Source: Psammoneis japonica | Taxonomy: Eukaryota | Assembly (NCBI GenBank): GCA_008632985.1 | Contig: QPGO01000211.1 | Span: forward strand, 1 to 64,000 | Direction of reading: 5' to 3' | DNA: 64,000 bases | Position numbers and translations under genes: made by a program | Part shown: positions 22,440 to 54,790 of the stretch, one piece after another | Layout of the letters: every line of letters begins with the position of its first letter | How positions within the stretch are numbered: the first letter of the stretch is position 1 | Notes under the pieces: model-generated | What the model was told of the DNA's origin: nothing | What the model saw: only the letters and a program-made list of their open reading frames with translations | Databases searched by the model: none

Positions 22440-24380
22440 ACAAAACATTGAGTTGCCACCTTGTTTCATGGGGACGAGTCAAATGGTGACATGCAATGCA
22501 TCGAAACTCCAATTGTTTGCCATGAAAACACAGACTGATCCCAATGCATCGTGTCGACATCACTGAAAATTGCACCGACACTGACAGCGCTTCCATCTGC
22601 TGACACAGACACAGCCTCTCCAAACCAATCGCATTCAGCCTCTGCATGTGAAAGAATGTCCAACTGATTCCATCTCATTGAGTTGGCATCGCATTGAAAA
22701 ACTCCAACATGACCCACATCTTCCAATCCATTGATGTCATGAGACCAACTTCCAATTGCCACAACATTTCAATTCCCACTCAAGGACACAGACCTGCCAA
22801 AAAAGTCACCTGGCTGTGACGTGACCAAAGATTGACCACGTTGCATCCATGTTGACGTGTTTTGGTCATGAACACAAACCAACACCCTCTCATCATTCAC
22901 CTTGACTGATGGTGCACCCATGGCCATGATCAAACTGGTGTCATCAAGAGATGCAGAACACCCACACAGACCAAACCTGACTTGTCCATTGATTGGACAG
23001 CCCAATGGAACCCATTGCAATGATGAAGCTTTGCATTCAAACACCAAAACCTGCCCAGCAAGATCTCCGCCGGCATCATTTCCCTGTGCCCCAATGCAAA
23101 CAATGGTCCCCGAGCTGCTCAAGGACACCAGTGCCCCCAACTCATCACGGGCAACTTGCCCAATTGGTGTCTGTCCAAGTTGGTTCCATGACAATGTTTC
23201 AATGTTGCATTGAAGCAATCAAGCCAATCCAGAATTGGTGCCATTGTCAGTGTCATCCCAATGAGCCCCCATGGCCAGAATGACTCCCATCTCCGACAAT
23301 GACACGGAATGGCCAGAGCAAAAAGAAAAATCACCCGCAGCTTGTCTGTCAATGTCGCTGCTGAGTTGCACCCAATGGCTTGCAGAGAAGTCACATTGAA
23401 AGCTCAAGCTTGGCCAGCCTTTGCTTCACTGCTGCTGTTCAACAGTGCGCCCACAGCCAAAATCGCACTGTCACCATTCAAAGACACGGATCCCCCAAAT
23501 TCATCACTGTTGGCTTGTCCAACCAGTGCTTGACCCATGGGCATCCACTGCTGTGTGGTGGAATTGATCCATTGCATGGAAACAAAACCAGATTTGTGAG
23601 AACGGCATTGCTCAGCTCTCCCACAGCTGTGATGGTTCCGTCTCACGACAAGGAGATGGCGGCACCAAAACAATCATCATCAGCATTGCTGTGCAGAACT
23701 TGTCTGAGAAGTTGCCCCACTCCTGGAGTGGCTGGTGTGGGAGGCAGGGATGGATCAGTTGACAGCGTCAGCAAACTGGTTGATGCATTGTCACCACCTC
23801 CTCCTGTCACTCCAACAACAATTCTGACTGCGGCACCAACAACCAAAATTGCAGTTCCCAACGCAATTGAGTGTTTCCGATGCTTGTTGCTCAAGGGTGC
23901 CTCGTTTCCAATCTGATCATGTTCATCATTGCTGGGAACAGCTTCAACAACATGTGCATCCGCTTCAGCCACAGGAGCTGTTTGTCGAAGGCAAGAGCAG
24001 ATTCCTTCTCTTAGACAAGCATTTTCCTCATCATTTGATTGAGCAAGTTCGCCTTCTGCAACAACTGCACTCTCATTGTCTGCACTCGGTGGTGACATGG
24101 GATTAGAATGAGCTGTTTCCAGGTCTGATGTGAGCAACATGTGATCACTGCCATCAATTCCCCATCCACGATGGACCTGACACCCTTGGCTTGCAGCGCA
24201 TGCCCCTGCAAGACTGGCTGCCAAAGCTTTGCCGGCATCCTCTTCCTGGTTTGAATTCTCTCTTTCTTTGTTCCCATCGTCATCATCTTGTTCACTTTGG
24301 TCTTGCTCCTCTCGATTTTCTTTGTCACAAAGATGCTGACTGGCACATTGTTTCTTTGTTGCCCCAATCAACGCCCCAGT
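22440..24380 (-). pseudogene. Decayed type II membrane protein with FG-GAP/integrin-alpha-like beta-propeller repeats (copy A)
   Basis: Repeats WxQLGQxxxGQxxxDEFGxSVSLSxxG; single TM segment (IALGTAILVVGAAVRIVVGV); in-frame TGA stops; Tyr absent. Confidence 0.75.
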
Positions 24381-24892
24381 GAGCAGCTTTCACCTCCTCG
24401 ATCGCTGACTCGTCATGTGTTCTCTCAATCAAATTTTCTTCTTTGTCGTCACTTTCAGCTTTTGCAGCTCATTTGTTGGGACCATTCATTGCTGTCCTGG
24501 AGTGCAGTCAACTTTGTAAAGTGTGGCATTTTGTGCTGACTGCTGACAATGATTCAGAGTGCAGGGAGCCCTGTTCCCTGTGTGCCTCTCCGTTGCTCTG
24601 CTCTCAGGATTTTCGAATTTGCTGTGTCCAAGACTGACAACTCCCCAAGTTCCATGGATGTGAAGTAAAAGTTTGCACGCATCATTGTTCATTTGCACAT
24701 TCATGTGTTAACACAGAAATAAATTGACACACAATGTCAACGTCTTGGATGCACTGCTGTGAAATGTCAACAGTTGGCGTGTGGAGAGGAATCTTTTCAA
24801 TAATTTTGTACGATGAGAGTGCTGTCATTGCCGTCTGAGTCTCAAGTAAATGATGCTTTCGATGCTGCACCTCTGTTGCTTCTGAAAATCAG

Positions 24893-26660
24893 ATGGGAAC
24901 AATGAATTGCTCCAAAGAAAGGCCAAAAAAGATGGATGGATTGGAGAAAGGAGACATGGAAGGCGAACACGAGCAAGAACAAGAACAAGCACCCCTCGAT
25001 CTGGCGAATCGCATTCATGAAACACAATTGGAGGAGGAAGACAGCAATGAAGACACTGACACAAGCATTCCGTTAACCATGTTGCAACCTGAAGGAGGTG
25101 CTGCTGAGGCAGACAGCATCACAACCATGTCCAAGTTGCAGTCTTGTCAGTCAAATGCAGGTCTCATGCTTTCACGGGTTGACAATGCAGAAATTGATCT
25201 GCCGAGAGCCAAACTTGCCCAGTCCAATGATGGGGAAAATGTTCGGCTCCAAGCAGAGGTTTCTCACCTTCGTCAGTCACATCTGGTTGCTCAGGCGGCT
25301 GAGGAGATTCGTGAAGACATGTCGGTTGACAATGAAAATGCAAAGAAAAAATGATGTCACAGACGTCTCATTGTTTTTGTTGTTCTCCTTTTGGCGATTG
25401 TTCTGGTTGTGGCTGTTGCAGTGCCCGTTTCTTCCAGCACCAACAGCAGCGGCGACATCAACATTGAGAATCCTGAAACACTGAAACAAGTTGCTGCATG
25501 GCAACCCATTGGACAAGTCTTGCACGGCAATGCCCAGGAGGATTTTTTTGGAACCTCCAACTCCTTGTCAAGGGACAGGACCACAGTGGCCATGGGAGCA
25601 TGTCGATTTGTCTCCGTGCATTGAATCAACCCTGACACTCAACAGTGGACACCCATTGTCAAGAATTGGTTGGATGAGCCATTGGTGACAACTTTGGGTG
25701 GTCCTTGTCATCAAATGGTGCGGGCACAATTTTGGCTGTTGGAGCATGTGATGTTGACAGTGACGGATTCAGTGCTGGTCAAGCTCAGGTGTTTGAATGC
25801 AATTCCTTCATGGACCACTGGCTCCAGCTTGGCAGTGACATTGATGGAGGGGTTTCGGGTGACAGGTTTGGTTTTTCATTGTCCACATCCGAGGTGGGAG
25901 ACATTCTTTCCATCGGAGCACCGTTTGATGACACAGGCAGCGGTCGCCATTCTGGATCAGTCCCATTGTTTCAACTCAAATGTGGTGCTTCCTTGTGGAA
26001 CCAACTTGGACAGATGCTGATTGGACAAGCTGCAGGTGATGAATTTGGAGCTTCAGTGTCCCTGAGCAGCTCAGGAAACATCGTTGACATTGGAGAACTC
26101 AAAAGTGGATTGATCGGAAGCTCTGCCGGTCCGATTTTGGCATTTGAATGCAATGCTTCAATCTCACAATGGGTTTCATTGGGCAATCCAATTGACGGAC
26201 AAATTGCTGATGGTCAGTTTGGAATTTCTGCTTCTCTCAATGACAGCGGCTTGATCATGGTGGTGGGCGCATCTGGAAGCAACAAGAGAGTGTCAGTTCA
26301 TGCCCTCAACTGCACATTGTGACATGGATGCAACGTGGCCAAACACTGCTTGCTCCGCAGCGAGGAGACAATTTTGGTGGATCCATGTTGCTGAATGGGA
26401 ATGGAGCTGTCTTGGTTGTTGGGAGTGATTCTCATGATGTCAATGGATCAGTGAATGAGGGTCAAGTTTCAATCTTTCAATGTGACACCAACACAGTGTA
26501 ATGGAGTTGAATGGGCAATCACACAAATGGCACGAGTCTGAGTTTGATCATTTTGGACATGCCGTGTCCTTGTCGGCAAACAGAAGTGTTGTTGCAGTTG
26601 GTGTGTGGGAGAGAGGTGTCAATTTCGACCAATCGGGGTTGGCACATTTGTTCACAGTAA
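24893..26660 (+). pseudogene. Decayed FG-GAP-like repeat membrane protein (copy B, head-to-head paralogue of copy A); a third fragment lies at ~26800-26960
   Basis: Shares LAQSNDxEN, the TM segment and WLQLGSDIDG..GDRFGFSLS / WNQLGQMLIGQAAGDEFGASVSLSSSG with copy A; stops and frameshifts. Confidence 0.75.
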
Positions 26661-27923
26661 AAATTAGAGCCTTGATTTTTGCCCTTTGCGGTTTGACTTG
26701 GTCCAATCCACCTCTGGTCATGAGTGTTGATTGTCACAAAGCCCACAATGGCACGTCAATGTTGACACTGGTTGAAACCAGAACACATTGCAAGCAAAGC
26801 TTTGGATCCAATCAATGGACAAATCACCAATGGTTGGTTTGGGTTGTCTGCTTCTCTTGATGACAGCAGTTTAACAATGACAGTGAGTGCACCTGAAGGC
26901 AATGAAAGTGTGTTGGTTTACATCCATGACCATGAAATGTCAACATGGAAACATTTGCCATTCAGCTTGGTCCCAGCTGGTGGCATGGCAGGAGCATTGA
27001 TTGTCTGACAATGACACAGCAACCTTGCAAGTGGTCATGGCCAGGTGCCCACACAAGAATGAATGACCACCTTGACATCTTCCATCACCAGAAAACCCTT
27101 GTGGCCCATCAAGGTTAAGGTTTTCACAATGTGCTGGCTTTGCTGTTTCTCATTGAGAAACTGTGCTTTGTTGAGGAATGTGGGCTGAACAAGAATTGCA
27201 GACTCAAAACGAAACTTGGGCACCTGCAATTGTGCATCAATCTCCTGTGTTTGTTTGGCACATCATCCTTCATGGAGTGTTCTTCTGATCATCCTCCTTC
27301 CACCAATTTGCACCTTTTGTCACACTTCTTTGCCTGGTGGACAAAGGAGGTTGGTTGAAACAGCGCTGGCTTTGGGCACAGGCTTGTTCCCACACCTGCC
27401 TGAAGCAGGTGTGTGGGGCACTGAGGACAATGTCAACAATGCACTTGCATTGGGCATTGGGCATTGCTTCATTGTTGGCAGTGCTGAATGACTCCTGTTG
27501 AAAACAATTGGGTCAATCACACTGGTGCTTTTGGTGGCCATCATCATGATGTGCTGTCTGCACCTGAGAGCTTCTTTTTCAAGCAAAAAGCACTTGACTG
27601 CCAAAGTGCAAAACAACAACACAATGTGCTGGCAGCATTTCAGACAGGAGCTCTCTTTTGAAAGTGACACAGCAACATCATCAATTGCACAGAGCTGTTC
27701 AAGGAGAAAACACTGTGCACACTGGCACACTTGAGAGAGTTCAAGCAGGATTTTTTTTTGTTTCAAGCATTTTTGGCTTTGTCATGGTGTGCAAAAGCTG
27801 CCAATGGCATTCTTGTGGCTGGTTTTGATAGAGATCCTTGTGTCGGTGCAGGAATGACACTGCCGCTGAGACCCCCCCCACACCAGGAGAATTGTGATCC
27901 CTGTGAGTCCGGGTGCACTGTTC

Positions 27924-28370
27924 TGCAATGTGCAGCTGCTGACAAGAGCCAATGCATCATGGCAACGTGTCACAGCCTTTAAATGTCACAAAGGGCGTGA
28001 CAAAAACAACCTTTTGTCTGCATGCATGCTGCATCATGAATTCACAGCGGAGTGGTTCATCGCAACCATTGGGCAGGAGACCAGGGGTTCGAAACCCTGA
28101 GTGGGAGTTGTCTGCAGCAACGTTGATCACTGTCAAACGCGCAAAACTCTGTGCAGTTCTGCATGTTCCTTCGCACGTACCCACACTGTTCTGCCAAAAC
28201 CGTGCAGTGTCAGTGCACGCCAGTAAAGAGCCGCATGGATGCGTGACACATGGGGAGGAGTGCAACGCACAGCTGCTGACAAGAGTCAATGCATCATGGT
28301 GACGTGTTGCAGCCTTTAAATGTCACAAAGGGCATGACAAAAACAACCTTTTGTCTGCATGCATGCTGCA
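27924..28370. repeat. ~110-bp direct repeat (27924-28033 and 28261-28370) downstream of the copia RNase H remnant
   Basis: cagctgctgacaagag...cctttaaatgtcacaaaggg...gcatgcatgctgca occurs twice. Confidence 0.9.
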
Positions 28371-28399
28371 GTTCTTCTGGTGAACAGCGCAGAGCACAG

Positions 28400-29540
28400 T
28401 GGTGCATTGTCGCTGCCAGGCTGGGGGCCGGTGGCAACTGCTCAACATGTGTCCAAGTGTCAGCAGAACAGCATTTGGGCAACATTCTTGGCAAGTGTGT
28501 TGCTGCAGTTGGCGGTCGCATTGATGCAGCCCATCTTGACCATGTCACGTTCAACCCAATCCTGCAGTGCAAAGTGGTGCATGTCCACATGATGGGTGTG
28601 TCTCATGGGTTGACTGGCACTGGTCATCATGAGAGATGCATTGTTGTCTTCACAGATCAATGTGGCCTGTGTGTGTGGAAATGACAGTTTGCCAGGACAG
28701 AATGAAGGTGCAGCACCATCTTTCCTGCACCCAATGCCGCAACAAGTTCTGCTTCTGAGGAGGATGCAGAGACAGTTGGTTGAACTCCAGTCTTCCATGC
28801 AATGGCAGTTCCAGCAAGCAGGAAAGCTGTTCCTGCAACAGATCATCAATGGTGCATGTCAGCAGCCCAGCTGGAATCCTTGTGTCCAGTCATTTCATGT
28901 GGAGATGCGGCCTGTGGAGGTTGTGGCACTCTGGTGTCATGGGGCACGGTCTTGGGTGATGGTGGTGGCATGAAGGGGGGCATCTCGTCAGGGCATTGGC
29001 ACCAGCATGTGAGACCAAAATCCAGATGTTGCTTGAGGAACTGAAGGGCATTCTTGACCCCATCGCAGTGCATGGTGCCTGGGTTGGACCCGAGCTGGCT
29101 CAGCTTGGTTGTCCATGGCCCAGATTAATTCACCAATGGCCTTCAGATGCAAGAAACCATGTTGTTGCTAGAGGGCCTTGGAGGCAGCAGCATCTGCGGG
29201 AGTGGGGGGCTCATCCAACAGTGTGGAGCAGGAGGCATCACCTGGCATGGGAACATCAGGGGATGTCTGGTGTGTGTCAGCTGAGCCAGCAAGAAAATTG
29301 CAGTTCGTGAGCATCCGCTTCACATGGGAGGTGCTGTGGAGCTGAGTGCAGTCCTGTTCTGTTCCACATCACATCCCAGAAAGAGAGTCAGGAGGCCCTG
29401 ATGTTTGATCTTGCCACCGGTGAGATGACAATCCACAATGTTGCAGCAGATGCAACAACGCGTCTCGTCCGAGTTGGTGGTGATGGTGAAGTCATCTGCT
29501 TGTTGCAGGAAGAGCACCTCCTCTCCATTCACTGTGCCAC
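28400..29540 (-). mobile_element. Ty1/copia reverse transcriptase C-terminus plus RNase H remnant
   Basis: EVLFLQQADDF (from RQVDDF); DSSWAAD...AIAWKTGVQPTVSASSSEAE; TLICEDNNA...HVDMHHFALQDWVERD. Confidence 0.85.
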
Positions 29541-31009
29541 TGTGGGTGCATGGTTCATGGGTGGTTGGAGTCAGGTGCAGGCAGAGAAAAAGAACAAGAG
29601 ATGTTTGTGTGCCACCATGAGAGAGACAGAAAGGAAAAGCAAAGAAGGCTTGTGAATCTGAAAAAGTGCCATGATGAGTTCCAGGTTTGCCAGGTGATCA
29701 ATCCTCCCCCTGTTGGCTGCTGCTGCCGCAACCACAGCGGTGCAGTTGACAGCATTGGCGTCCACAGCAATGACTTCACTCCTGCCAGTCCTTCCAACAA
29801 TGACAGAAGGATTTGTTGTGAGTCCTTCCGCAACCTCTTTCAACCACATGAAAAAACAGCAGCAGCAGCAGCAGCACCAGAATCGTCATCCTTGTTGCAT
29901 TTCTTTCAAATCCATGTTTCATCCTCTTCTGGCAGCAGCAGCTGCCACCATGAATGGAAGTTCCAAAAGTGGCAACCCCAACAAAAAGAAGTCCGTGCAA
30001 AGAAAAATTCGTGCCACTTCATCCAGCAGTGGCAGTGCTGCTGCTACGAGGAATCAAAGCAGCACCAACAACAAGGCACAAACAAAACCAAAGAGATCTC
30101 ATCACGCCATGGCCGTCCTGGCCATGCCACACACAGCCATGGATTGCATGGCCAATGAAGCAATTTTGAAAATGATTGTGCAGCGTGCAGACAAACTGTC
30201 CATGGCTCTAAGATGCCGAAGTCCTCAACCACCAAGTTCGGCCTGTTTGCGCAAGCATGTTGGCAAAGTCCACTCACAACTTTGGGATTGCATCATGAAC
30301 GATGAAGCACAAGACTGTGAATTTTCAGAGGAGAAAGAGAGCCATTTGCCACCAGTGTTTGATTTGCCTGATGTTTGTGCCCATCCGCAAAATCCACCCA
30401 ACACAGCACCAGAAGCCTGGTTGGAAATTCAACCCAATTTGAAGGGCGTGTGTGCAGTCACAATGATCCAATGGGTTGCATCTTGGAAGAAGCAATGGGA
30501 AGGGGTTGTGATTTTCAACACACACCCGTGGCCTGGAAGCTCAATTTGCTGCCTTGAATGCCGATCGACAAGCTTGCAAATTGGGTTCAGTGCAAGCTGC
30601 GCCAGTCCAGCCGCAACACTGCCCCAATGTGAAACAAGTGGCACAAACCAATCAAGTTATTTTTGTTGATGATGAACCTGAAGACAAGTGCCAATTGCTG
30701 CTCTGGCAGGCTTGGCAAGAGCAACAAGGACAGGAACGACAAATGCAACAGAGCGTGGATGATGATGATGATGACAGTGGCAGCACAAGCAGCACGAAGG
30801 ATGCCTTTTTGGATGTGGCAACTGGCACCGCTTTTTCGGATGCAGTGGTTGATGATGAATGCCCCAATGACCAGCTGCTTGGCGGAGCCCGGCTGCCAGC
30901 CAATCAACAAGTCTTGTGCAATTCCACATGTTGTGGTGGAACCTCTGCGCTGTGTTGTGTTGAGAACAAAAGATGTGATGCAATGGGAACCCAGAGGTGT
31001 TGTGCAACT

Positions 31010-32990
31010 CATTGCAACAAACTTTCTCCCGCTGATGCCGATGCCCTTTGCCAAGCCCTGTCCTTTCTCAACCCAACCAACAACCCTGCCATGCAACCAG
31101 AAATCACCACTGGCATCCGTTTTCTTGGCCAACCAATCGGCTCTACCAAATTCGCTTCAAATTTCCTGATGGACAAAGCAGAAACTTTCACCTCACCGAC
31201 AAACAAACTCAAAGCACCCCATTTCACAAATGTGCAATTCCATCCATTACACACCTCCTTGCCGCAGACGTTTGTCACAACCTGATGCACAACACCAACT
31301 GCCCCAACCCCTTCGAATGGGCCTCCCCCTTCAAAGACACCATCATCAGCCACTCACTCCGATTTCTCTCATGCCCTGCTGAAACAACTGCACCTCTCCT
31401 GTCGGCAGCCCATCTTGTTGCCACCCTCCCAGTCTCCCTCAGCGGCGTCGGATGCCACGACATCTCTGCTGCTGCCATCCTTTCCTTTGTCACCTCCCTT
31501 GCCCATTCCATCCGCTGCACCAAACATGGCATCCCACTTGCCGGTGACCAACTCTTCCACCTCCCCCAAAGCTGTTCCACTGCCCTTGGCTCCTGGTCTA
31601 ATCTACAATCCAAACTTTCACTCTGTGCCATCTTCAAGCACCATGCTCCCCCAAAGCTGTTCCACTGCCCTTGGCTCCTGGTCCAATCTACAATCCAAAC
31701 TTTCACTCTGTGCCATCTTCAAGCACTGTGCTCCCATCCTCTTCCAATGTGACTCACCATCCTTTGAGTCCCTCAGACACTCTGTCGAAAACCACAACCC
31801 ACGTGGCCTTGCCCAATGACTCCACCACTGTCATCACAAACACAGCATGCTCTCATAAATCCTGAACAACTCTGCCATCCAGCCAGCTCTCCCATCCCTT
31901 CTTTCTCCCCTTGCAAGTTTGTGCCTTCACTCCCTCTCAAGACTTCACCCATCCAACAGATTGCCCTCTGCATCACTCACCCTCCTTCTTCTGCAAAAGC
32001 TCCGACTCCCTGCTGTCTCTTCTGATTTTCTTTCCAAAGACTGTCCTTGTGGCTGCACCTGACCAGATCCATGTGGCAATCATGCATTCACCTGCATCAA
32101 AATGCACAAAGCCCCACTCTTGAACCATCTTCGTGACACCCTTTGCACGATCATTGAAACCCTGGGCCCTCTCAGCGGCCTGTGCCGAACCTGCCAACAA
32201 GTTTTTCTCAACCCAACCAGTCTTCTGGCCAATCATCCTCTTAAACGCCCCACTGACATTGGAGCACAACTCATTCCCGGCTCCACCCTCCCTGACGCCC
32301 CATCTGCACATCGATTTCTCGCCATTGATGTTGCCGCACCTCCAGCTCCCCCCCCCCCCCCACCTCCTGCACCTGGTTTGCCTGCCCCTGAAAACCCTCT
32401 TGCCAAGGCTCACCTCAGCAGTGCTTGGGACAAGCTGCTTGGCCGCACAACATCTGCAGCCTGCCACTTAGACATCATCAATGCCGTCAACCATGCTGGC
32501 TTGTTCCTTCTCCCTTTTGCCATCCACCACCTCAGTGGCGTTGGACACCATTTCCATGTTTTCTTTTTTGGCCAATCTGCCACGTCATCCTCTCCAATGC
32601 CTCCTCTCCCACCCAAACCACCCTGGACAAACCCATCTGACCTTTCCCACTCCCAAGCTTCCTTCTCGGCATGCAAAAACTCCCTTCCAGCACCCTCCAA
32701 CTTTCTCACCCGTGCCAACACTGCCTGGAGCAACACATCTCTCCTGACCGACTCGGCGACTCACATCACACCGCTGCTCCCCTTCTGTGGGCATCCCAAA
32801 TCCTGAGCTCAAACTTCAGCTTTGCCCTTTCATCTCACCTCTCGAACTGCCAACAACTCCTTCTCACACACCCAACTGTCGCCAACACATCCAATGCACA
32901 CCCGTCCATCCACACCATCAGCCAATCCTTTTTCTCTTCACCACCCAGCGTGCCACACGCGACTCTCCCTCCAACCAACCACACATCTCC
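31010..32990 (+). mobile_element. Non-LTR retrotransposon 3' remnant with restriction-like endonuclease (CRE/R2-type architecture)
   Basis: GIRFLGQPIGS (end of RT); LPVSLSGVG; CPCG...DPCGNHAFTC..HK...NHLRD Zn knuckle at ~32040-32140; RPTDI...AIDV (REL PD..D motif). Confidence 0.75.
31561..31730 (+). repeat. 85-bp tandem duplication inside the non-LTR remnant
   Basis: Units 31561-31645 and 31646-31730; ctccc microhomology at the junction. Confidence 0.95.
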
Positions 32991-33220
32991 ACTGCCCTCT
33001 CTCTAGAGCAGAGAGAGACACCCAATTTTAAAACATCAATCAACGCCCCACATTCTGTGCAGAGGTGCACAAATTGTCTGTTGTCATTCCCACACGCGCA
33101 TTCGCACACTCAGCACGCTGCATGCGGGCGACAACAGATGATTCACGCACCTCTTCTGTGCCCGGTGCAAACAACAGAGTGTGGTCAATTCGTTCCTCTG
33201 CCCCATTGATGTTTCTTTAA

Positions 33221-33686
33221 CCCTTCAACCACCAGGGGAGCAAATCTCCACGGGTGGAGATTTGCTCCACTCAAGGATGTGTGACGTGTCATGCACTTTT
33301 ACAATGATGCAATGAACACAGTAAAAAAATGTCGCATCGTGTGCAATCTGCGTAAAGTGTGCCACGTGCATTTGCTCATTGGGAGCAAATCTCCACCGGT
33401 GGAGATTCTCTCCCAGGGTGTGGTGTCATTGCTCTGTTTGTGATGGCAATTCATGATGACCTCCATTGTTAAAGGTTGAGATTTAGTTCCTCTCTGTTCA
33501 CAGATGAAGCTTGCAAAAAACCCGGTGTTAAAAGTCGACATTGAACTTTCTAAATTGCAAAAAGGGTGCCTCCAGATTTTCAGCGAATGCGTGTTCCAGA
33601 ACAAAATCGCGCGAATGAAATGTTGCACATGTCTGAAATTACTTCATTTGCCACATTTGTGATGCAAGCGCCCGGTGGTTGAAGGG
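33221..33686. mobile_element. piggyBac-type MITE (466 bp)
   Basis: TTAA target duplications at 33217-33220 and 33687-33690; TIR CCCTTCAACCACC(A/G)GG; two internal ~32-bp palindromes. Confidence 0.9.
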
Positions 33687-33789
33687 TTAAGATGCCAGCG
33701 GTGCAAGTGAACAATGTGAAAGGAGAGCCTTTGACAAAAATCGTGTCCGGGGAAACTGCAGCGCAGGCTGAAGAGAGAATTTCCAAATG

Positions 33790-34800
33790 AACAGAGGGTG
33801 TCCTGGAGAATTCAGACGGTGTTGCGCTTTCCGCTGGTGATTGTATCACGGCAGAAGGAGTGCCTTGTGTGTTTGAGCCTCTGCAGCAACAACAACAAGT
33901 TGACACAGTGCCAGAAGAGTGCAAACAACTTGCTGCCTTTGCAAAGGGGGAAATGGACAACAGGACGAAGCACAAACCCATGTCAGAAGCATCGGTGCCA
34001 TTTGCAAAAGAAACATTGAAAGGGTGCGGATTTACAGTGGAAGTGGCCCCTTTCATCACCAAGTGCGGTTCCGGAGCAGACCCACCCCCATGTTCATGGA
34101 AAATTGTGGACGGAAAACCCAAGGAGTGGAAGAAAGGCAAACATGCTGGCACACCTGGAGCTGGGGACTGGGTTCGTGACAACCTGTTGGGTGACGACAC
34201 AAACTTTGGTCTCAAGGTTGTTGCCGGTTCTGTGCTGCCAAAGATTAAAGCCAATCGTCGCAGTGCTTCGGGAACGGGAGATTTAGCCATTGGAGATCCA
34301 ATTTCGATGAACCATGGAGAAGAACATTTGTTTGCGAACGGTTTGGTTGAATTGAAAACACATGAGCATCCCTTGAAAACTGGACAAAGTTTGCTCCAGC
34401 TGCTGGCATTGTCGATGATCAGTCGCCTTAAAACAGGCGTTGCCCTTCTCGCTGCCGACTGCCATGCAAAATGGGAAACCTTTCACTTCTCGAATGGTCA
34501 TACGGTGCAACGCCAAATTTATCAGCACGGCCGAAAAGCTTGGGAAGATTTCATGGAATTGATCAAGTCTCTGGGAATGCAGGTCTTTAAGATAAAAATG
34601 GACACAATCGACGAAGAGGACGAGCAGAACCTGGATGGTTTTCATTTTGGAGACCAAGAAAGTAAGAAATTAGAAGCAGTGTAGGACGAGGCGTTGCTCG
34701 AGCGCATGGCTGACCATCTCGGCGATGTCTACGGCGAACGACCAGTTGTCCCATTCTGGGCCCGTGCAGAGTCAAGAGTTCCTGACTGCTGCGTCTGACG
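33790..34800 (+). pseudogene. Degenerate PD-(D/E)xK restriction-like nuclease fold protein (Crinkler REase-like)
   Basis: SGTGDLAI...GLVELKT...QSLLQLLALS...VALLAAD motif order; premature stop at 34684. Confidence 0.45.
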
Positions 34801-34899
34801 CACAGCCATCAACAGGAGGAGGCGGACAGCTGCTGCCTGTTGCGGCATAAATGACAAATGCTTCTAGTGTCTCAAAGCCAGCACAAGGCACTCCAGAGC

Positions 34900-37800
34900 A
34901 GTGCACCAAGTTGACGATAATTCAAAAACAAAAACCGGCCTTGTCGTAGAACAAAAACAAAAACACCCCTTACACACATTTCCACACCAAACCACGCATG
35001 TGCATGTGGGGAGCCACAAGCCAACAATGCCGGCTTCAGTCGACAGCAGCAAAAACAAAATGGGCAAGACACACAATGGCGCGTTTGAATCCATTTGTGA
35101 CGGCAATTGTCAATCAATCATGACGCAAGTCAATGCAGTCATGGCTGCTCAGTCAAGGCAAGCCCAGAACCAAGTCCAGATGGCTGAGGCGATCTCTCAG
35201 ACGCTAACTGCGGAAGCTAGAGACAAGATCATCGCCAAGAGTGAGCAATGCAAGATCAACAACATACAAGTTGGTGCACTGTTCTTCAAGTTACTCACCC
35301 AGAAGGCCATCGTGGACACTCGCTCAACTGCAAACTGCTTCGGCAAGAACTTGTCCAGCCTTGACTTGCACATGTCAACCTGCAACTCAAACATCAAAGA
35401 GTTCAACAAGTGTGTCAAACTCAACCATGATGGCCTCAGAGCTGGGGGAGAAGGCTGCGATGACCCAGTCATCAACCCATTCAAAGGTTACGCAGCAGCT
35501 GGCAACCAAGCATTCATCAAGTGCATGGCTGACATTGAACAGAAGTGTGACGATGGTGAGGACCACACTCCGGAACAAGTCATGCAACTGGCTCTCAACA
35601 AGTGCACCAATCTTGATCAAGCAGAGAACTGGGGAGCACTCTCTCCAGAGCAAGAAAGGATTGTTGCACTCACCGCGGAAGTCAAAACCATCAAGGACCA
35701 CAACCTCAAGCTCTCCAAGGCTCTCAAGAGCACTCCTGACAAGTCCAAGGGAGGTGGCGGCAAGCAGAACTCCAAGAACAAGAGCAAGAACCCAAAGCGT
35801 GCCAAGAAACAGGACAAAGCCTGGAAGAAGACTCTGCCAAAGGACAGCAACCCCACAAAGACTGTCAATGGTCACAAGTGTCACCACAAGAGTCAGAAGG
35901 GATGCGCCTGCCATTGGTGCAAGTGCCACTCTGCTTGGGTGGCTCACTTGCCTGATGATCCGGGAGACAAAGGCTGTCAACTTCGCAAAGCTCAAGAATC
36001 TGAGAGCCGCTCATCCAACTCCAACAAGAAGGCATCCTGCACAAATGCTCTGGCCTCAATCATCAAGGACCTGGAGTCCAAGGAATGACTGATCCAGGAA
36101 GCATTCTGGACACAGGTGTTCTGCATGAAGGTGGCCCTCATCACGTTCACAATTGCCCTGGTCACCACGAGCTTCGTAGACACGATGACCCACTGTTGGT
36201 GCTCACAGTGTTCACGGCACTCAACCCACCAGAGAACAAGTGGAAAAGTGCATCCAAGTGAGCAATGACGTTGGGTGAGTGGATTGTTTCACAAATCCCA
36301 GCTGACGGCATGACTGGCAGATGCAAACCAAGGTGAAACAAGAGTCAACACTCACCGCGATGCATCACTCCCAAGAAGAAAGGCCATCCCACTCAAGTGG
36401 CACACAAAAGGCTCAATGCAAGATCACCTTTCACAAGACAGTCTACGCCAACTCCTCAACCACCACGACGCCATTCAAACAAGAGCTGAGGTTGGAACCA
36501 GCATCTTGTCCATGCAACCTGCACAATGTCGAATGACAGACCACACTTTGTCGGCAACGTCCTGCAAACAAGCAGATCAAAGGAGCAGGCAGATGGTTAG
36601 ATGCAGAAGGAGAAGGCACACTCAAGTGGTGCACCAAGGATGATGACGGACAGGTGCACATGATCACCATCTACGACGCACTGCATGTTCCCAACTCACC
36701 CATTTGCCTCCTCTGCCCTCAGCAATGGAGCCGTCAAGCACAGGATCATCACCCTGAACCACATGGAACAACTTCCTGGAACCAAGACAATGGTCTCCTG
36801 CTCATGTGGGATCAAAGGAAGCACACAAAGCTGGTCCCTTGGACCAACAATTCCAACGTTGCATGCTTCCGTTCCACACCCGGTGCTGCTGACTGCCGGG
36901 CATTTGCCTTTGCAGTGGATGCTGATGACAATGTTGAGACTGTTGAGCACGCAGCCCATCAGACGCACGTGACATCCACAGATGACAAAAGTGACTCAGA
37001 GTCCATGGATGCTGCAAATGACAAAGATGCCTTCACAAGTCCTGACGAGACAGGTCCTGACGAGACCCAAGGCACACGCAACAATGTTGATGAGGAAGTG
37101 CCACTGTTGTTCAAACCGATGGATGCTGCACACAGATCCAACTCACCTGATGAGAACCTCAAGGATCTGGTGACCCCAGAAGTCCAAACCTGCCTGCAAG
37201 ACCCCATCAAAGTCATCCCTGATGATGATGCCCTGGCGGCCACCGACAACCAAGCTGGCAGCTCCCAAAAGTCTGCCCGACGTAGATGCCCATAGACTTG
37301 CACTGGTTTTTCGTCAAAAGTCTGCCCGTTTGGAGTGCAGCTTCTGCACAATTTTTGCACCAGTGTGTCTCATGAACCGTGGACTTTTCTACGTGATTTT
37401 TTGTGCAGAATTCGTGCAACAGAAATCAAACCGAACATCTCACGAGGCAGCGGCCTTTTTGGGATTTGTTGTGCACACAATGCACCAGATTCTCGCATGT
37501 GGACACAAAGGTGGAAAAGACAAACAAACACACTGGGAACTTCAGCGAAATTCTACGTGCAATCGGGCAGACTTTTGTTGTGGGCAAACTTTTGGGAGCT
37601 GCCAGCAAGGTGAATTGTTGCGTTGGCACTGCTGTCTTGGACACCAATCATTCAAAATGACAAAGCTCCTGGCTGTGTTGGGTGTCCTCCTGCGACACCT
37701 CCTGAAGGTCAAGAAACCCAAATGTGCTGGCTGCCTCTGTGGCGCCATGACCAAACGCCCTTGGTGCACCAAGTCCAAATGGAGGTCAAACATGCATGTC

Positions 37801-38850
37801 GCTGCAAAGCCAGGGGAGGTCATGTCGGCAGATCAACTCAAAAGCTTGACCCCAGGCTTTGTCCCTCAACTCAAAGGGAGACCTGCAAAACAGCAATGCA
37901 GAGCAGCAACAGTGTTTGTTGATCACCATTCAAAACTGGGATGTGTGTTCCTGCAACGATCACTTGCCTCCAAAGAAACCCTGAAGGCCAAGCATGCTTT
38001 CAAAGCCTTTGCGAGACGACATCATGTCCAAATCAAACACTGCCATGCCAACAACGGTCAAGTTGCTGACAATGCTTTCACACAAGACGTTGAGAAACAG
38101 GGTCAGACAATGTCATGCTGTGGCATCAACACCCACTTTCAAAATGGCATTGCCGAGAAGCGAATCCGCAACCTGCAAGAACAGACTCACAAGCAGCTGC
38201 TGCACGCAAAAGCAAGATGGCCAACAGCCATCATTGAGATTAATCTCTGGCCAAGTGCACTGCACAATTCCAATGAGCTCAAGAACAACTCACGCAGCCA
38301 TGAAGATGGCAGCTCGCCAATCAAATGATTCGCCTCCATCAAAGTTGCTCCAAATCTCAAGCAACACCACACTTTTGGATGCCCAGTCTACGCACTGGAC
38401 AACTGACTGCAGAGTGGACAGAGAGCACCTGAGTGGCAATCAAGAGCAAGGTCAGGAATCAACTTGGGACCATCACCAAGACACACTGGATCAGTCAACA
38501 CAGTGCTCAATCTTGAGACGGGACTTGCCTCACCGCAGTTTCACGTCCAATTCACAATGACTTCTTTGAAACAGTGGGCCCTTCAGCAGGGAATGCACCG
38601 GCTTTCTTGCAATGGCAAACCGCACCAGGACTCAAGAAACAAAGAACATCAAGATTCAACATCTTCAAGACCCAAAAGGAAGTGAGGGAGCCATGCTCCA
38701 CTGTGCCAGTGCAGACCACTTTGGCGCCAGAACCCGATGTTCCGCAACAACTCAAAGATGAGCATTTTCCTGTTGTGGAGGACAAGATGCCAGAACCAGC
38801 AGGAGATGCACCAACTGAAGACACTCAGGAGATGGCAGTGTGTTGGAGCA
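34900..38850 (+). mobile_element. Diatom Ty1/copia (CoDi-like) retrotransposon remnant: gag, protease region, GAG-pre-integrase and integrase; RT absent
   Basis: Gag with WCxxHxxWxxH...C knuckle; GEGTLKW...DALHVPNSPICLLCPQQW; LLRWH..LGH...CAGC; SADQLKS, ATVFVDH, HFQNGIAEKRIR, GPSPRH...LETGLASPQFHV. Confidence 0.9.
37255..37605. mobile_element. 351-bp MITE inserted in the copia pol region
   Basis: 24-bp TIR ctggcagctcccaaaagt(c/t)tgccc; 4-bp TSD CAAG at 37251-37254 and 37606-37609; removing it restores D-N-Q-G-E-L-L-R-W-H. Confidence 0.9.
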
Positions 38851-38899
38851 TCTAAAATGAGTGGGGCAATGTCCGGAACCCAGAGCTGTTGAAGAGAAG

Positions 38900-41700
38900 A
38901 TGCTTCAACTTCTGAAATTGCATTGTGGTGTCAGCAGGTGCCTGTTGTGTTGTTGGATTGAAGTTTGTTGAGGACTTCCAGGCAAACCACGGCCACCACA
39001 GCAACCAGGGCAAGTGCAACAAGTCACGCAGGAAACCTCACAGGATTCCCTTTTGGTGACATTGACTTGTTGTTGGTTTGACACTTGGCGTCAGATTCAC
39101 CATGGGAGGCAGAGTCAGATTTCACAATGGCACTGGTGTGGGAGGCATTGTTGGAATTGGTGCAGGAGGCAGAGTTGGTTTTGGCAATGGCAGTGGTGTC
39201 AGATCAATGGCAGAGGCCTGTGCAGAGTGGGTTTGAATGATGCCTGTGGCATGGGAGGCAATGATGGAATTGGCATTGGATGGAGAGACAGCTTTGGGGA
39301 TGGAGGTGGTGCAGAGTCAATTGTGGGAGGCGGAGTGGGTTGTGATTGCAACTGTGGTGTGTGGGAGGCAAAGACAGATTGGACGTCGGAGGAAGAGATG
39401 GTGGTGTCAGCAACAGAGGTGGTGTGGGGTCAGCTGCAGGAGGTGCAGTGGGTCTCAATGATGGGTTTGGCATCAGAGGCAGAGATGGCTTTGACAATGG
39501 AGGTGGTGTGGGGTCAATTGCAGGAAGAGGCACAGTGGGTTTTGGTGACATGATGGCAAAGTTGGAGGTGCACCTGGGCCAGACATTGGAGGGACTGCTG
39601 TGGTCTCTGGTCTTAGAAACACAAGAGCAGTCTGCATGACAGCAGCAGTTGGTGGTGGTGCTTCTGGTGCATTTGTTGTCACAGCTGCCAATGGTGGTGT
39701 CAAGGTGCTTGGTGGCGGGGTGAAAGTTGCTGCAGGCAAAGATGTTGTTGCTGCCAGTGCAAGACTTTTTGGCTGTGAGGTGGTGCTTTGACTTGGGGGC
39801 AAACTTGTTGGAGCACTGCCAGGAGTCAGTGTTGAGTCTGTTGGTGGAGCAATGTTTGACTGTGGAGTGGAGGAGGGAGAAGTGGGCAAATTCATTAAAG
39901 TCCCCACTGGAGTTGGAGAAGCTGCTGATGTGAGACTGTTGGGTTGGGGTGTCAAGGACAGATGTGGCAGCAGACTCATTGGAGATCTGGCTGGTGCCAA
40001 CATTGAATCTGTTGAGAGCTGTTTGGCATTGACACAGAGGTGGGAGATGGTGGAGATTTCATCAGAGGTTTGCCTGGAGTTGGGGCAGAGCCTGCAATTG
40101 GTGCCAATGCATTTGGCTTGGGTGCAGAGGATGGACAAGAACAAGGTGAATTCATTGGGAGTGGTTGGCCAGGCGACTGCTGGTTCAGATCCATTGGTGC
40201 TCTGACAATTTCAACAATGGACCCATTGGAGTCAATTGTGTGCAGCTCAGAAGTCACTGGGAACTCTTCAATCCCAATGTTGAGGAGCCACAGAGTCAAA
40301 ACTGTCTAAAACTTGGCTGCAGAAAATGATGTGAACTGCATTTTGATTTCTTCATTTCTCCTGTGAAGCTCATCTTCTGGGTGTGGCTTTTGCAAACAAA
40401 CAAGCCCTTCTCTTCACCAACTGATTCACTCATCTTGCTGTCAATCCCAGAGCCAAACACATGGGTTCAATTGAAGGGAACCCAGCATTGCACACAATTT
40501 TTGCTGTCCAACTGGCATCCATGAACAGCGCCATTCTGTTTCCACACAAGAGCAGCTCACAGTTTGCAAGCTAAACATTGCTGATGGATTGCCCTGTGCA
40601 TGTCTCTCAGCCTCCTGACATGTTGTTGTGCACTTCTTTGAATGTTGTTTCTGTCAGCTCTCTTTCTTCAAGCACAAATGGCCTTGCAGGTCATTCAAGG
40701 CAACATGATGCATGGCACTGATGTTGAGTTTGGTTTACATCACATTGCAACCCTTCCAATGAAGCAAGGCTTGAAGAGCTGTTTTTGTTCTCAGTTGCAA
40801 GAACCGCCCCTGATGTGACAGAGGCAGCAACAAGAACAGCCATCACAGCCACTGCTGATGCAATGGCTGCACCCATTCCTGTGCCCAGGCCAGTGGCTGT
40901 TGCTGCTCCAACTGTCATGGCCACTGTTGCACCAGCTGCCACAGCAGCTGCATTTGCCACAGCCTGAGTGGCCATTTCTTGCTGGTGAGCAACCACTTGT
41001 GCGCTGCAGCACAGAAATGGGACAATGACTGTGGGTCAGTTAAAGAATTGCTCAAATTAATCACAACAATGCACACACACATTGAACAAGCAACTTGTGC
41101 TGGCAGCACAGCTCCAGCTCCTCCTCCTCCTCCCTGTTCTTCTTGTGGTGCCACCATGCTTGAGGGGCACCCTTTCCATCTAACCCACACCAGCATCGTT
41201 GTCATCATCTGTTTTGTTGATGCTCTTTTTCAATTTTGTTGCTGCATGACTGACCATTCCCAAACCAGCCATGCCGGCAGTTGCAAAAAGAACCTTCCGT
41301 TTCATGTCGCTGCTGTCTTCTTCTTCCATGCTGGTGTGTTGCCATCATTGCTCTTGGCATTTGAATTTGATGTGCTGCCATCAGAGCTTCTGTCATGGCA
41401 GGCAGCAAAAACAAAAAGATCTAGAAAGACCAAAATGTTGAACACAAGCACACGTCATGAAGCAGCAAAAGGCAACATTTGGTTGGGTGGATGGACTCAC
41501 ACCGCACTTGCCAAATCTTGTTCTGAACCTTGTGGCATCAGAACCTTCATGGCTGCTTTCTTCAGAAGAGGAGTCATTCTTCATGCTGATGAATGCTGCA
41601 AATGCTTAACAACACTGGCAATTGATGTTTTTGGGCAGGTGTTTTGCTCTTGTTGTGACAGAAGCATCATCCAAAATGGTGCTTTTTGATTTTCTGTGAC
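38900..41700 (-). pseudogene. Decayed Pro/Thr/Ser-rich (mucin/PT-repeat) surface-protein gene with an Ala-rich TM segment
   Basis: PTxxPT-rich fragments (39200-40150); AAAVAAGATVAMTVGAATATGLGTGMGAAIASAVAVMAVLV; many stops; TA-depleted. Confidence 0.5.
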
Positions 41701-44000: not shown

Positions 44001-45510
44001 CCGCGATCTTTTGCGTGTCGTCACGCGTTTGTCGCGCGCGCGGTGCGCGCACCTTTTGGGCAGATAAAGCAGGTGAATCTAAACCAGATAGATCTCACCA
44101 GAACGCGCAAGAAGAAAAAAGAATGGTGTTGAAAAAGTGAGAACCAAAACGAAAAAACGGGAAAACAACAACAATGTGGATGATCGCATTGCTTGAAAAC
44201 CGATGAAAAATCATTTAAGTGTTCATGATCGAATCGAACATAAAAAGGTCACCTGGAACTGGAGGAGGACAGAGCATGTGTCTGCCGCAGCCAAGGCACA
44301 GCCAGCAGCTTCCAACAGAGCTCCCCAGCTTCCAACATGATTCTCCCATGTGTCCAACAGAACTGAGGATGCGCGGAGGACCCTGACTATCTCTCTGCCC
44401 CTCTGCAAGAAAGATGAAAAGATTGGACAAATCAACAAAGCCCAGCAGCTTGGAGTTTTTTGTCAGCCTCTCTTTCTTGCCCCAGCTGACACACCACCTG
44501 CTCCTGATCGATTGCGGCACATCCACGCTGACACACCACCTGCTCCTGATCGATTGTGGCACATCCATCAACTGCGTCGTTGCAACACTGTAATCAACAA
44601 TGCACAGCAATGCTTGCACCGCGATCTTTTGCGTCATCGTTCGTCGTCGCGTCCGTCGCGCGCGCGCCTTTTGGGCAGACAAAGCAGGTGCATCTAAACC
44701 AGATTGGATCTCACCAGAACATGCAAAAAGAATGGTGTTGAAAAAGTGAGAACCAAAACAAAAAAATGGGAAAACAACAACAACAGCAACAATGTAGATG
44801 ATCACATTGTTGGAGGCATTCATCAAGACTTTGGGTGAAACTGTGGGCAAGCAGCAAAAATTGTGAATGAGAACAGCTCACACCACCAGCAGCTCACTCT
44901 CCTCTCTCGTCCCTGAAACAAAAAAGGCTGCACAACGACCCTCCATCTCCAAGCAAGCAAGGCCAGCAGCCAGACTCTCAAGATGTTTCTGCATGTTTGT
45001 TTGGAAACACTGTGGCAGAAGAATTGGGCAGTGGTGCGTGCCACCTTTGTGGTGTGCCTTGCGCACATGACGCTGGGTGTGGCGCGCTCTTGGTTGCATC
45101 ACATGTGTTGATGATGTTTTGTGTGAGATGAGAAAAGACTGGCTTTGACATCCCTTGCTGGAGTGCTGCCACATGGAGAGATGGAGGCGGTGTGGCTCCC
45201 CTCATGGCACCTGGGCCGCACCCCCGCACATTGTGCGCCACAAGACCGCCGTGCCACACAGCCAAGAAGGTGCGCCCCCCCCCAGCAGCAGCAGCCTCCA
45301 ACAGAGCTTCCCAGATCCCAACATGATTCTCCCATGTGTCCACCAGAACTGAGGATGTTTGGAGGACCGTGACTGTCTCTCTGCCCCTCTGCAAGAAAGA
45401 TGAAAAGATTGGACAAATCAACAAGGCCGAGCAGCTTGGAGCTTTTGTCAGCCTCCTTTTTTGCCCCAGCTGATGTGCCACATGCTCCTGATCGATTGTG
45501 GCACGTCCAT
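44001..45510. repeat. Patchwork of local duplications: 44001-44185 matches 44619-44810; ~44300-44525 matches ~45285-45510; 42-bp tandem at 44485-44568
   Basis: Copies aligned by eye; TA-depleted; probably remnants of one non-autonomous repeat family. Confidence 0.85.
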
Positions 45511-50959: not shown

Positions 50960-52200
50960 GGTGAAATGGGGATTGTCCAAAATGGGGTGAACGTTTCAAA
51001 CTACACATGAAGGAACATGATGTGTCCAGGAACAGCTTGACAATGTTTTCCGTCCAACTGTCAGTTTTGGGCGTTCTCCACATCTCGGTCCCACTCCTTG
51101 AGCCACACAATGCTCTTTCATGCAGCATTTTTGAGTTGAAACACAGTGAAGCATTGCACTGTTCAAGTGCAGTGCTGCAATCCCCCACTTGCCCAACTTT
51201 GGAAAACTGAGTGTGTTTGTTTTGATGCTGACACCCATTTTTTTTCTGTTGCTGAAATTTTCTGTGGTCGGGAGCGAAAAACCGGCTTTTGGCAAAGCCG
51301 CCACAAACAAAAACAACTCATTTCTCATCTTTTCTTTTTAGATCAAACGATGTACACATCTTTGAAAGAAAGTTGAGGTGACATCATCTGTCTGTAAATT
51401 TGAGCCAGAAACATGTGCAAAATGCCTGGCGCTGCAAATCAAGTGGCTTTCCGACACTTTGAGCCTGGCAAAACTGGGCTCTGGAGAGAAAAGCAGGGCA
51501 TGCAAAGAAAGTGCTGTGCTGCCAGTGTGCCCCAAGTGCTGGTGTGGCAGCATGGTGCTTCTGTTGCTTTTTGTTGCTGGCACCAATCTTGTTTCCAAAC
51601 AAAAGTTTCACACCATGTGATGTGCACCCACTTCCAGCTGGCAACTCACATCACACCACAGTTCCTGGCCGCCTCTGCCCCACAAAAAGGTGCTTGGTTT
51701 TGTTTCCTCCAAACAGATCATGCATTTTGTCTTAGCACCCCTGCAATTTTGGTTTTGGGCCAGCTCTTCTTTGTGCTTCTCAGCCGCATCTCTTGGGGCA
51801 ATTGTGCCCTGAATTTTTGTTGCCAATGCCCCCCCCAGATTTTCCTCCTCTTTGTGCAAGGAGGTTTTGTCTCTTTTTTGCAGAGCACACCACAGAGTGC
51901 AGCTCTCTCTCATCTGGGCCTGGCAGAGAAAAAGAGGAGAGAGCAAAAAAGAGAACATTGCCAGTGCTTGCAAAAAAGTCCCTCCCCCCCCTCCAAACAA
52001 GAGCGAGAGAGAGAGAGAGAGAGAGGAGGGCATGTGTGGGCACCAAAAAAGAAGAAGAAGAGAACAAAGCCGGGGTTTGGGGCCAACCACTTTTAGAATG
52101 ATCAAATTTGCAAGCCATCTTTTTGTGTGCAAAGCAGCACACAATGACAGTCACACACAGTGGGACGACTCGCTCAATCTCCTTGAGCTTTGAGCACATC
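50960..52200. other. TpA-depleted degenerate island with an (AG)n tract at ~52005-52025
   Basis: About 6 TA in 1.24 kb; spurious Cys/His-rich ORFs. Confidence 0.65.
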
Positions 52201-53899: not shown

Positions 53900-54790
53900 A
53901 TCAGCCTTTGCCAATCATGACCCGCCAGCTGTAGAATGTGAACCTGAGTGCTTGACCACATTTGTCAGAGCACCTTGGCCTGAAGAAATTCTGGCTTTGT
54001 GTCTTCAAAATCACATCACAACTGCACCGATGTGCAGAGCCTTCAGAGTTCCATGCACGTCAAGGAACTGCTCTTCTCCAACTTGGTGGTTGAACGTCAC
54101 AAGTGAAGAGAGGCTTCCCCTCCTGCACCCGCAGTTCAATGGCCTCTGATTGTTTGAAAGCTTGAAACTGATCAGCTTGGAGTGGCAGATCAACACTAAA
54201 GCTGAGCTTCAAGTCAAGTTTGGTCTTGAACAAATTTGTGTCTTTCACAAGCTGATGCTCCAGCTTTGTCTTGTTTGCCAACATCAGTGGTGGCCAGCAC
54301 TTCCTGCTGGCAGTGGTCATCTTTGCTGTGGAAAGATGCAGCAGCATTTCATGTCTGAGACATGAGGCATGCAGTGTGGTGCAAGTGTGGCAACTTGCTT
54401 CCTTGCCAGTGAGCACAATGGTGATGTGATGCTTGACGCTCAACGACGCTCTCTGGCTTTGCCAGATGCACAAGACAGAAAAGCCAAGCACGGGGGTTGG
54501 TGGTGGAATGAACCATGAGCAAAATGAACAAACCCCAAAGAGCAATTTTTGGCACACATGGCTTTCCCTCCAAACCAGATCATGCACCCTGGAATTGGGA
54601 GTTGCCTCGCTCCCGCGCACTCTCAGGCTGGGAGAGCGAAAAATCCACACACACCACAGAAACTCCCTGAACATCAAAAAGTGTTCCTCTTGGGGAGACA
54701 GGCCAACACCAAGAAGTTTGGAGTGACATGCCTCTCTTTTCTATTTTTGAACCTGCTCTGTGTTTGAACACAAACTTGACGGAAGCAGCA
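53900..54790. other. TpA-depleted degenerate island (decayed coding-like sequence)
   Basis: About 3 TA in 890 bp. Confidence 0.6.

Follow-up and report, generated by a model that had tools for sequence, protein, structure and literature searches.

Why should a retrotransposon be almost free of tyrosine, with cysteine or histidine standing where its relatives have tyrosine? The question is raised by what appears to be the remnant of a Ty1/copia retrotransposon in the diatom Psammoneis japonica, within the 64,000-nucleotide stretch analysed here (GenBank assembly GCA_008632985.1, contig QPGO01000211.1, positions 1 to 64,000 of the forward strand; hereafter the window). A first-pass annotation, made from the sequence alone, had proposed that conserved tyrosines (Tyr) of this element were systematically replaced by Cys or His through transitions at TpA. 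We found the replacement to be genuine and its cause to be regional rather than a property of the copia element. Our analysis, which covers this one 64-kb window and one sample, favours an in-place, context-specific transition process that has probably stripped TpA from a presumably silenced, repeat-rich diatom tract, with the replacement of Tyr by Cys or His as its footprint in protein.

Three remnants, in the order gag, protease and integrase, make up the element:

34868..36085, plus strand: Ty1/copia-type gag remnant, an open frame of 406 codons with 1 Tyr, 18 Cys and 19 His
36555..37090, plus strand: protease-region remnant, in a frame that differs from those of gag and integrase
37483..38742, plus strand: integrase remnant in a third frame, interrupted by TGA codons at 38326 and 38404; the copia element ends here

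Homology of the gag frame to its relatives begins at about 35006, and a collection of 5.8 billion proteins supplied 25 of these (E 1e-98 to 1e-26, 31–52% identity). The integrase frame matched 3,977 proteins at E ≤ 0.001 in a representative library (best 1e-86; 330 at E ≤ 1e-30). In tblastn with 24 full-length relatives (1,100–1,500 residues long), the integrase remnant matched their residues ~200–790 and the protease region their residues ~50–400 (E down to 7e-18). Every stop that breaks the homologous frames is TGA. The same tblastn search found no reverse transcriptase or RNase H in the window's main copia copy, and neither a repeat search nor a word-9 self-blastn of the window found direct repeats (long terminal repeats, LTRs) around it; because the copy is 3′-truncated, the absence of LTRs is no argument against a Ty1/copia origin. 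Pfam reported gag_pre-integrs alone for the window's integrase, under the cut-off (E 2.6e-4), while in the three full-length relatives that were scanned gag_pre-integrs stood above the cut-off and was followed by SH3_retrovirus and RVT_2. Judged by this domain order of its relatives, the element is assigned to Ty1/copia, and is predicted to be a truncated, dead copy that retains gag, protease and integrase.

We then followed the fate of conserved codons by aligning 195 stored proteins to the window with tblastn and retaining codons with at least 60% agreement among at least 10 relatives. Tyr was kept at only 2 of 16 Tyr-consensus codons; the others had become Cys nine times (TGC six times, TGT three), His twice (CAC, CAT), and Val, Ser and Asn once each. 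The protease region contains one Tyr-consensus codon, which reads CAT. By comparison, Asn was kept at 15/16 codons, Phe at 13/14, Lys at 24/30, Trp at 13/13, Gly at 27/28 and His at 14/16. Against all remaining consensus residues other than Arg (273 of 347 kept), the loss of Tyr was highly significant (P = 8e-8, Fisher exact test). The retention of Asn, Lys and Phe implies that A-to-G change was not general; Ile became Met (ATG) at 1 of 15 codons and Val became Ala (GCA) twice. An alignment of the gag frame with its relatives (26 rows) gave a similar picture: at columns with at least 60% Tyr, the window kept 1 of 11 and showed Cys six times and His once, whereas the other columns kept Phe at 5/6, Asn at 8/9, Lys at 11/14 and Ile at 5/9, with Met replacing Ile three times.

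No relative shared the pattern of Cys or His at Tyr columns (0 of 25 for gag, 0 of 130 for integrase), so that the outcome named in the first-pass annotation as refuting it did not arise. The 25 gag relatives have 9–19 Tyr each (2.2–4.6%) against the single Tyr of the window's gag frame, and the integrase frame at 37174–38325 has 1 Tyr in 384 residues, and no Tyr within the aligned part, against a median of 3.0% in its 130 relatives. At columns where the window reads TGY or CAY, the relatives carry Tyr (for example, 145/150, 36/36 and 34/36). This fixes the direction of change as loss of TA, as had been suggested. In a codon alignment with the DNA of four intact relatives, which at ~40% protein identity are too distant for fine nucleotide polarisation, 10 conserved TA steps had yielded 1 TA, 6 TG, 2 CA and 1 TT. 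TA was lost by transition on either strand. The 9:2 split between Cys and His is not significantly unequal (binomial P = 0.065), and raw TG and CA counts are confounded by base composition; we therefore claim no strand asymmetry.

The motifs quoted in the first-pass annotation (FNKCVKLNHDGL, ALNKCTNL, LLRWHCCLGH, CAGCLCG, VDHHSKLGCV, KHCHANNG and MSCCG) all occur in plus-strand frames, and gag does hold a single Tyr, although its frame runs to 406 codons from stop to stop and not to 395 amino acids. Some of the assumed consensus residues fared less well. In WH-x-RLGH the first Cys of the window falls on a variable column and the second derives from Arg, not Tyr; in VDH-x-S the window's His likewise falls on a variable column; and at MSCCG the majority residue of the relatives is Phe.

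CpG decay, also anticipated for this DNA, was evident in the same codons. Arg was kept at 8 of 19 consensus positions, the others having become Gln (three), Cys (three), His (two), Gly (two) and Lys (one), and Asp had become Asn at 3 of 22. The element's observed-to-expected ratio (o/e) for CG is 0.41. Two gag relatives from ENA assemblies, P0004 and P0012, have His or Cys for Arg at conserved columns (for example, in DTCST and FHENL) and retain Tyr, a sign, in our reading, that CpG has decayed in other copies or organisms where TpA has not.

The first-pass annotation had overlooked the scale of the phenomenon. A dinucleotide o/e scan revealed that the copia element is one tenant of a tract of about 20.5 kb, and that four patches elsewhere in the window bear the same signature:

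21000..41500, no strand: tract stripped of TA and CG, with both edges sharp at 250-bp resolution
6001..7000, no strand: intergenic patch, TA o/e 0.09, CG 0.41; no Pfam family in its open reading frames (ORFs)
44250..45500, no strand: intergenic patch with TA loss and local duplications
51001..52000, no strand: intergenic patch, TA o/e 0.07, CG 0.22
54001..54750, no strand: intergenic patch, TA o/e 0.11, CG 0.50 (1-kb bin)

The tract contains 99 TA where 1,295 are expected from base composition (TA o/e about 0.05), with CG o/e of about 0.1–0.4 and TG/CA o/e of about 1.5–2.1; the rest of the window has TA o/e of about 0.5, CG of about 1.0 and TG/CA of 1.2–1.4. Depletion of TA depended on the flanking base: set against the remainder of the window, ATA/TAT stood at 0.03, GTA/TAC at 0.10, CTA/TAG at 0.16 and TTA/TAA at 0.27, while the four CGN classes stood at 0.31–0.45 and CAG/CTG at 1.8. 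TA loss and CpG loss coincide in position, in the tract and in all four patches. The patches sit between apparently intact host genes, show the gain of TG/CA seen in the tract, and have no Pfam family in their ORFs.

The composition of the tract differs from the general equilibrium of the genome. In 15 long host ORFs (6,633 codons), TA o/e was 0.52 at codon positions 2-3 and 0.55 at 3-1 junctions, and CG o/e was 0.94 and 0.88, respectively. As further composition controls we used five loci encoding intact gag relatives, metagenome contigs found with an 8-row gag alignment, which had TA o/e of 0.45–0.56 and CG o/e of 0.77–1.08. Because host ORFs and intact relatives alike stand at TA o/e of ~0.5, the element would have begun near that value; from such a start, about 85% of its TA and about 55% of its CG have gone. 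The element lost almost all its Tyr because the surrounding ~20 kb of DNA had nearly every TA, and most CG, turned into TG or CA. Selection for Cys and His, as in zinc binding, is rejected as a cause because the frames are broken and the non-coding neighbours carry the same signature.

How recent is this decay? We compared the window with contigs of one public study (run X1), probably the assembly's own sample and the one public source of the stretch, for which no RNA data set was listed. These contigs reproduced the tract at about 60x with 0–7 differences per contig, and one of them extends ~5.2 kb past the left end of the compared stretch, so that the tract's left edge is bridged independently. 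The differences comprised 132 transitions and 17 transversions; among the 40 differences listed, 24 were CG<->TG/CA, 10 were TA<->TG/CA and 6 were other. Per-site counts were taken from five long contigs (11,845 bp in all) of single-copy depth, 23 of whose 25 differences were listed. Among these, differences fell at 4 of 55 TA sites, at 7 of 259 CG sites (plus one C>A at CG) and at 1 of about 6,047 bases outside pyrimidine–purine (YR) steps; TG/CA sites differed towards CG at 9 of 2,585 and towards TA at 1 of 2,585. By this proxy, the decay of TA outpaces change at bases outside YR steps by a factor of hundreds, and it is ongoing or very recent. At 32745/32746 the window and the contigs differ doubly, as TG versus CA. 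Two A-to-G differences lie 2 bases apart at 22173 and 22175, one at TA and one at GA, a pair that may hint at clustered events.

The DNA affected is not confined to transposons. Inside the tract lies a fragment of an FG-GAP_2 gene in the form of an inverted duplication, together with a satellite and a less decayed island:

25607..26592, plus strand: one arm of the FG-GAP_2 inverted duplication (Pfam FG-GAP_2, E 1.9e-12)
22584..23586, minus strand: other arm of the FG-GAP_2 inverted duplication, 66% identical to the arm at 25607-26592
27924..28370 (and 27.5-28.8 kb), no strand: satellite with a 337-bp tandem unit, found as a direct repeat of 92% identity
33250..34750, no strand: less decayed island, TA o/e 0.22, CG 0.74

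The two FG-GAP_2 arms differ by TG opposite CA at 33 places, against 1–3 in each of six control double-transition classes, an excess which suggests that ancestral YR steps decayed independently in each arm. The 337-bp unit belongs to a highly abundant satellite inside the tract: its summed contig depth in run X1 was 24,683–36,628, compared with ~60 for single-copy DNA, and a joint in one of the contigs goes back by 337 bases, the satellite period. The island belongs to a segment (32800-34750) that is present ~20–40 times in run X1 (summed depth 1,336–2,655 versus ~60), holds an open frame of 297 codons (33791-34681, plus strand) without a Pfam family, and could represent a more recent insertion immediately upstream of gag. 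Decay did not follow copy number. Segments of single-copy depth have been stripped to the same degree as the satellite and as the copia element, the latter with a summed depth of 150–370 in the X1 contigs and a family of about 3–6 copies suggested by run X1 at 90% identity or more, and the segment present at 20–40 copies is the least stripped part of the tract. With undecayed baselines of about 0.5 for TA and about 0.95 for CG in the arithmetic for the copia element and the island, the ratio of TA to CpG decay came to 2.3–3.3 in three agreeing estimates, from the element, the island and the listed differences from run X1.

Pfam assigned no family to 72 of the 80 ORFs that we searched from the tract, the patches and the host genes. 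Within the depleted DNA, two rounds of Pfam searches (5, then 80 ORFs) returned nothing beyond the sub-threshold gag_pre-integrs and FG-GAP_2.

We propose that, within a presumably silenced, repeat-rich tract of the diatom chromosome, TpA would be converted to TG or CA (A:T to G:C), while in the same DNA CG would turn into TG or CA, most simply through deamination of 5-methylcytosine. The dead copia copy would have been carried along with its neighbours, namely the satellite, other repeats and the duplicated pseudogene fragments. Among the targets are a retrotransposon, a satellite and repeats, but also DNA at single-copy depth and the pseudogene arms. Adenine deamination next to a 5′ T would be the leading candidate chemistry, by analogy with a system described below; thymine modification at TpA, or repair biased at T:G mismatches, would leave the same footprint. 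Since CpG transitions are abundant (24 of the 40 listed differences; CG o/e about 0.3), a second process would be superimposed on the first. Its source may lie in the CpG methylation reported for diatom transposons (PMC2806351; PMC9998398). As expected for decay of methylated transposons, TG/CA stands in place of CG in the tract and the element has Cys, His or Gln for Arg, and such methylation is the simplest candidate explanation for the CpG half of the decay. It covers that half only, and accounts neither for the removal of TA nor for the change from Tyr to Cys or His.

As far as full-text searches show, TpA-specific hypermutation has been described once before, in a 2026 preprint on a chlorarachniophyte (Mettrop et al. 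2026, bioRxiv 10.64898/2026.01.13.699255). Two viral regions integrated in the genome of Bigelowiella natans, followed in mutation-accumulation lines, had a mutation rate ~1,000 times the background; of the 231 mutations in these regions, 230 were A to G or T to C, and these all lay at TpA. The same source lists 324 TpA-poor coding sequences, enriched in reverse transcriptase and DDE domains, and proposes an ADAT2-like adenine deaminase; its main text mentions neither CpG nor diatoms. Full-text literature searches turned up no description of TpA decay in any diatom, and the words 'dinucleotide', 'hypermut' and 'tyrosine' are absent from the consulted text of a study of diatom CoDi copia elements (Maumus et al. 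2009, PMC2806351).

Set beside that account, the P. japonica tract shows the same change (TA to TG/CA), the same confinement to particular tracts and the same footprint of TpA depletion with a gain of CpA and TpG. The likeness in rate is by proxy: an increase of ~1,000-fold was seen de novo in B. natans, whereas here the listed differences give 4/55 for TA against ~1/6,047. The two systems also differ. One host is a chlorarachniophyte, a rhizarian, and the other a diatom, of another phylum, in keeping with the window's Vac14-like protein, whose named relatives all come from diatoms (Fragilaria, Corethron, Epithemia and Attheya; best identity 56%); the targets are a giant virus and a virophage in the one, and an LTR retrotransposon, a satellite, repeats and duplicated pseudogene fragments in the other. 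Depletion in P. japonica is deeper (TA o/e about 0.05 over 20 kb, compared with the Rho of 0.45 given for the nucleocytoplasmic large DNA virus region of B. natans), and it is accompanied by strong CpG decay, whereas the preprint describes change from AT to GC only. By analogy, we infer that the diatom process may be the same kind of targeted TpA hypermutation, and enzymatic. A wider reading, to which we hold only tentatively and which could well prove wrong, is that diatoms have a two-pronged, chromatin-targeted editing defence against transposons, satellites and duplicated DNA, made up of a TpA-specific mutator (A:T to G:C) and decay of methylated CpG, and that its mutator would be the system of B. 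natans, either ancestral to the Stramenopiles–Alveolata–Rhizaria (SAR) group or widespread.

Another process of this kind points the other way. RIP (repeat-induced point mutation) in ascomycete fungi, as set out in PMC2621366 and PMC7882544, likewise riddles repeats and foreign DNA with context-specific transitions and kills genes. In RIP, however, C becomes T, chiefly at CpA, which gives rise to TpA, whereas in P. japonica TpA is destroyed and CpA and TpG are made. The signature of the tract, with TpA depleted 10-fold and CpA/TpG enriched, is the opposite of that expected from RIP.

Several observations weigh against targeted TpA decay as we have described it. The differences between the window and the X1 contigs might reflect allelic or strain variation or, at some sites, paralogy, and all support comes from the one window and the one public study. 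The FG-GAP_2 duplicate is old (66% identity, with 149 transversions among 322 substitutions), which implies that parts of the tract are ancient. A test of Tyr fates on the FG-GAP_2 remnants was uninformative: none of 14 Tyr columns was kept, but 8 of them read Phe, which is probably ancestral to this subfamily. We take the FG-GAP motif to be F-E-Y-like; it reads FECN, FECK and FQCD here, and distant relatives leave the ancestral residue unsettled. The background TA o/e of about 0.5 is already low, so that part of the effect may stem from a long-acting general bias. CpG transitions stand beside those at TpA, unlike the AT-to-GC change alone of B. natans, and any coupling of the two is putative. 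Depletion is deepest at TAT, which sits poorly with the substrate context of ADAT: in its natural substrate, T is not known to be a 3′ neighbour of A34.

If the general bias and the age of the duplicate were the whole story, the tract would simply be very old neutral DNA that had reached the diatom's ordinary equilibrium, with methylation removing CpG and with neither targeting nor a special enzyme involved. TA o/e of just about 0.5 in genes and intact relatives, the 66% identity and many transversions of the FG-GAP_2 arms, and the truncation and frameshifts of the copia element would all suit such passive ageing, but we regard it as unlikely. Synonymous and junction positions of host genes are equally old and yet stand at TA 0.52–0.55, ten times the value of the tract, whose edges are sharp at 250-bp resolution. 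Among the listed differences between near-identical contigs, 4 of 55 TA sites had changed against 1 in about 6,047 bases outside YR steps. The copia frames, moreover, kept 273 of 347 conserved residues other than Tyr and Arg, against 2 of 16 Tyr.

The same targeted decay might instead proceed by another chemistry, in which a modified (for example, hydroxylated) thymine mispairs with G, or a T:G-mismatch glycosylase, drawn to methylated DNA, resolves replication errors in favour of C:G. Thymine modification favours TpA in some protists, and T:G glycosylases are context-dependent. That TA and CpG were lost from one tract and one set of four patches points to a connection with methylated chromatin, and the occurrence of both strand outcomes (9 Cys and 2 His, P = 0.065) fits as well. 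The TpA hypermutation of B. natans, however, is described without the word CpG in the main text of the preprint, which argues that coupling to cytosine methylation is not required. We consider this variant, too, rather improbable.

Adenine deamination could also have struck before integration, on the RNA or cDNA of the retrotransposon, through hyper-editing by an ADAR- or ADAT-like enzyme (A to I after U), with insertion of the edited copy. Animal deaminases hypermutate retroelements in this way, APOBEC3 changing G to A and ADAR, which prefers a 5′ U, changing A to G, and such editing resembles the diatom process as a form of defence. An excess of sense-strand A-to-G change (nine Tyr to Cys) over T to C (two Tyr to His), and of TG (six) over CA (two) at conserved TA, is what it would produce. 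The strand split is not significant, however, and His outcomes exist. Moreover, the FG-GAP arms, the satellite and the low-complexity flanks are equally stripped, and outside the element near-identical contigs of single-copy depth still show differences at TA sites. Both strand outcomes, together with flanks of non-retroelement DNA stripped to the same degree, exclude editing before integration as the main cause, and we give it very little credence. Animal editing is strand-specific on the cDNA or RNA of the element, whereas the decay in P. japonica affects both strands and non-retroelement neighbours, in place. An assembly or sequencing artefact, or chance composition, is scarcely credible even though the sole public source is one study, probably of the window's own sample, because X1 contigs at about 60x reproduce the tract with 0–7 differences each and bridge its left edge, and because the protein-level pattern is codon-specific (P = 8e-8).

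Were targeted TpA decay in P. japonica borne out, it would be a second, near-saturated case, in a diatom, and the process would not be peculiar to one alga or to integrated viruses. It would tie the TpA process to the silencing of transposons and satellites and to CpG decay, and would bring the question into a group whose model species are open to genetic manipulation, so that a candidate deaminase could be knocked out. It would also bear on gene prediction. Because a TpA mutator cannot make TAA or TAG, it would leave long open 'ghost' frames, free of Tyr and rich in Cys and His, that mislead gene finders. Stripped tracts would keep such long frames, with TGA as the sole stop to arise, and these would escape Pfam, whereas a dinucleotide scan (TA and CG versus TG and CA) would detect the tracts at once.

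At the right edge of the tract, an open frame of 276 codons (40859-41686, plus strand) has 30 Cys, 19 His and no Tyr, and is likely to be another 'ghost' frame from the same decay. After the point of copia truncation, 38972-40210 is low-complexity DNA with CA o/e of up to 2.7 and CG of about 0.1; it carries long open frames on both strands, rich in Pro, Thr and Ser on the minus strand and in Gly and Trp on the plus strand. Beside the satellite, 28457-28842 (minus strand) gave a weak tblastn match to 2 of the 24 full-length relatives (E 1e-4 to 4e-4), at the C-terminal end of their copia polyproteins, on the RNase H side, in the orientation opposite to that of the main element. Outside the tract, a Cupin_8/JmjC-like gene contains an assembly gap, a run of 43 N at 16738-16780.

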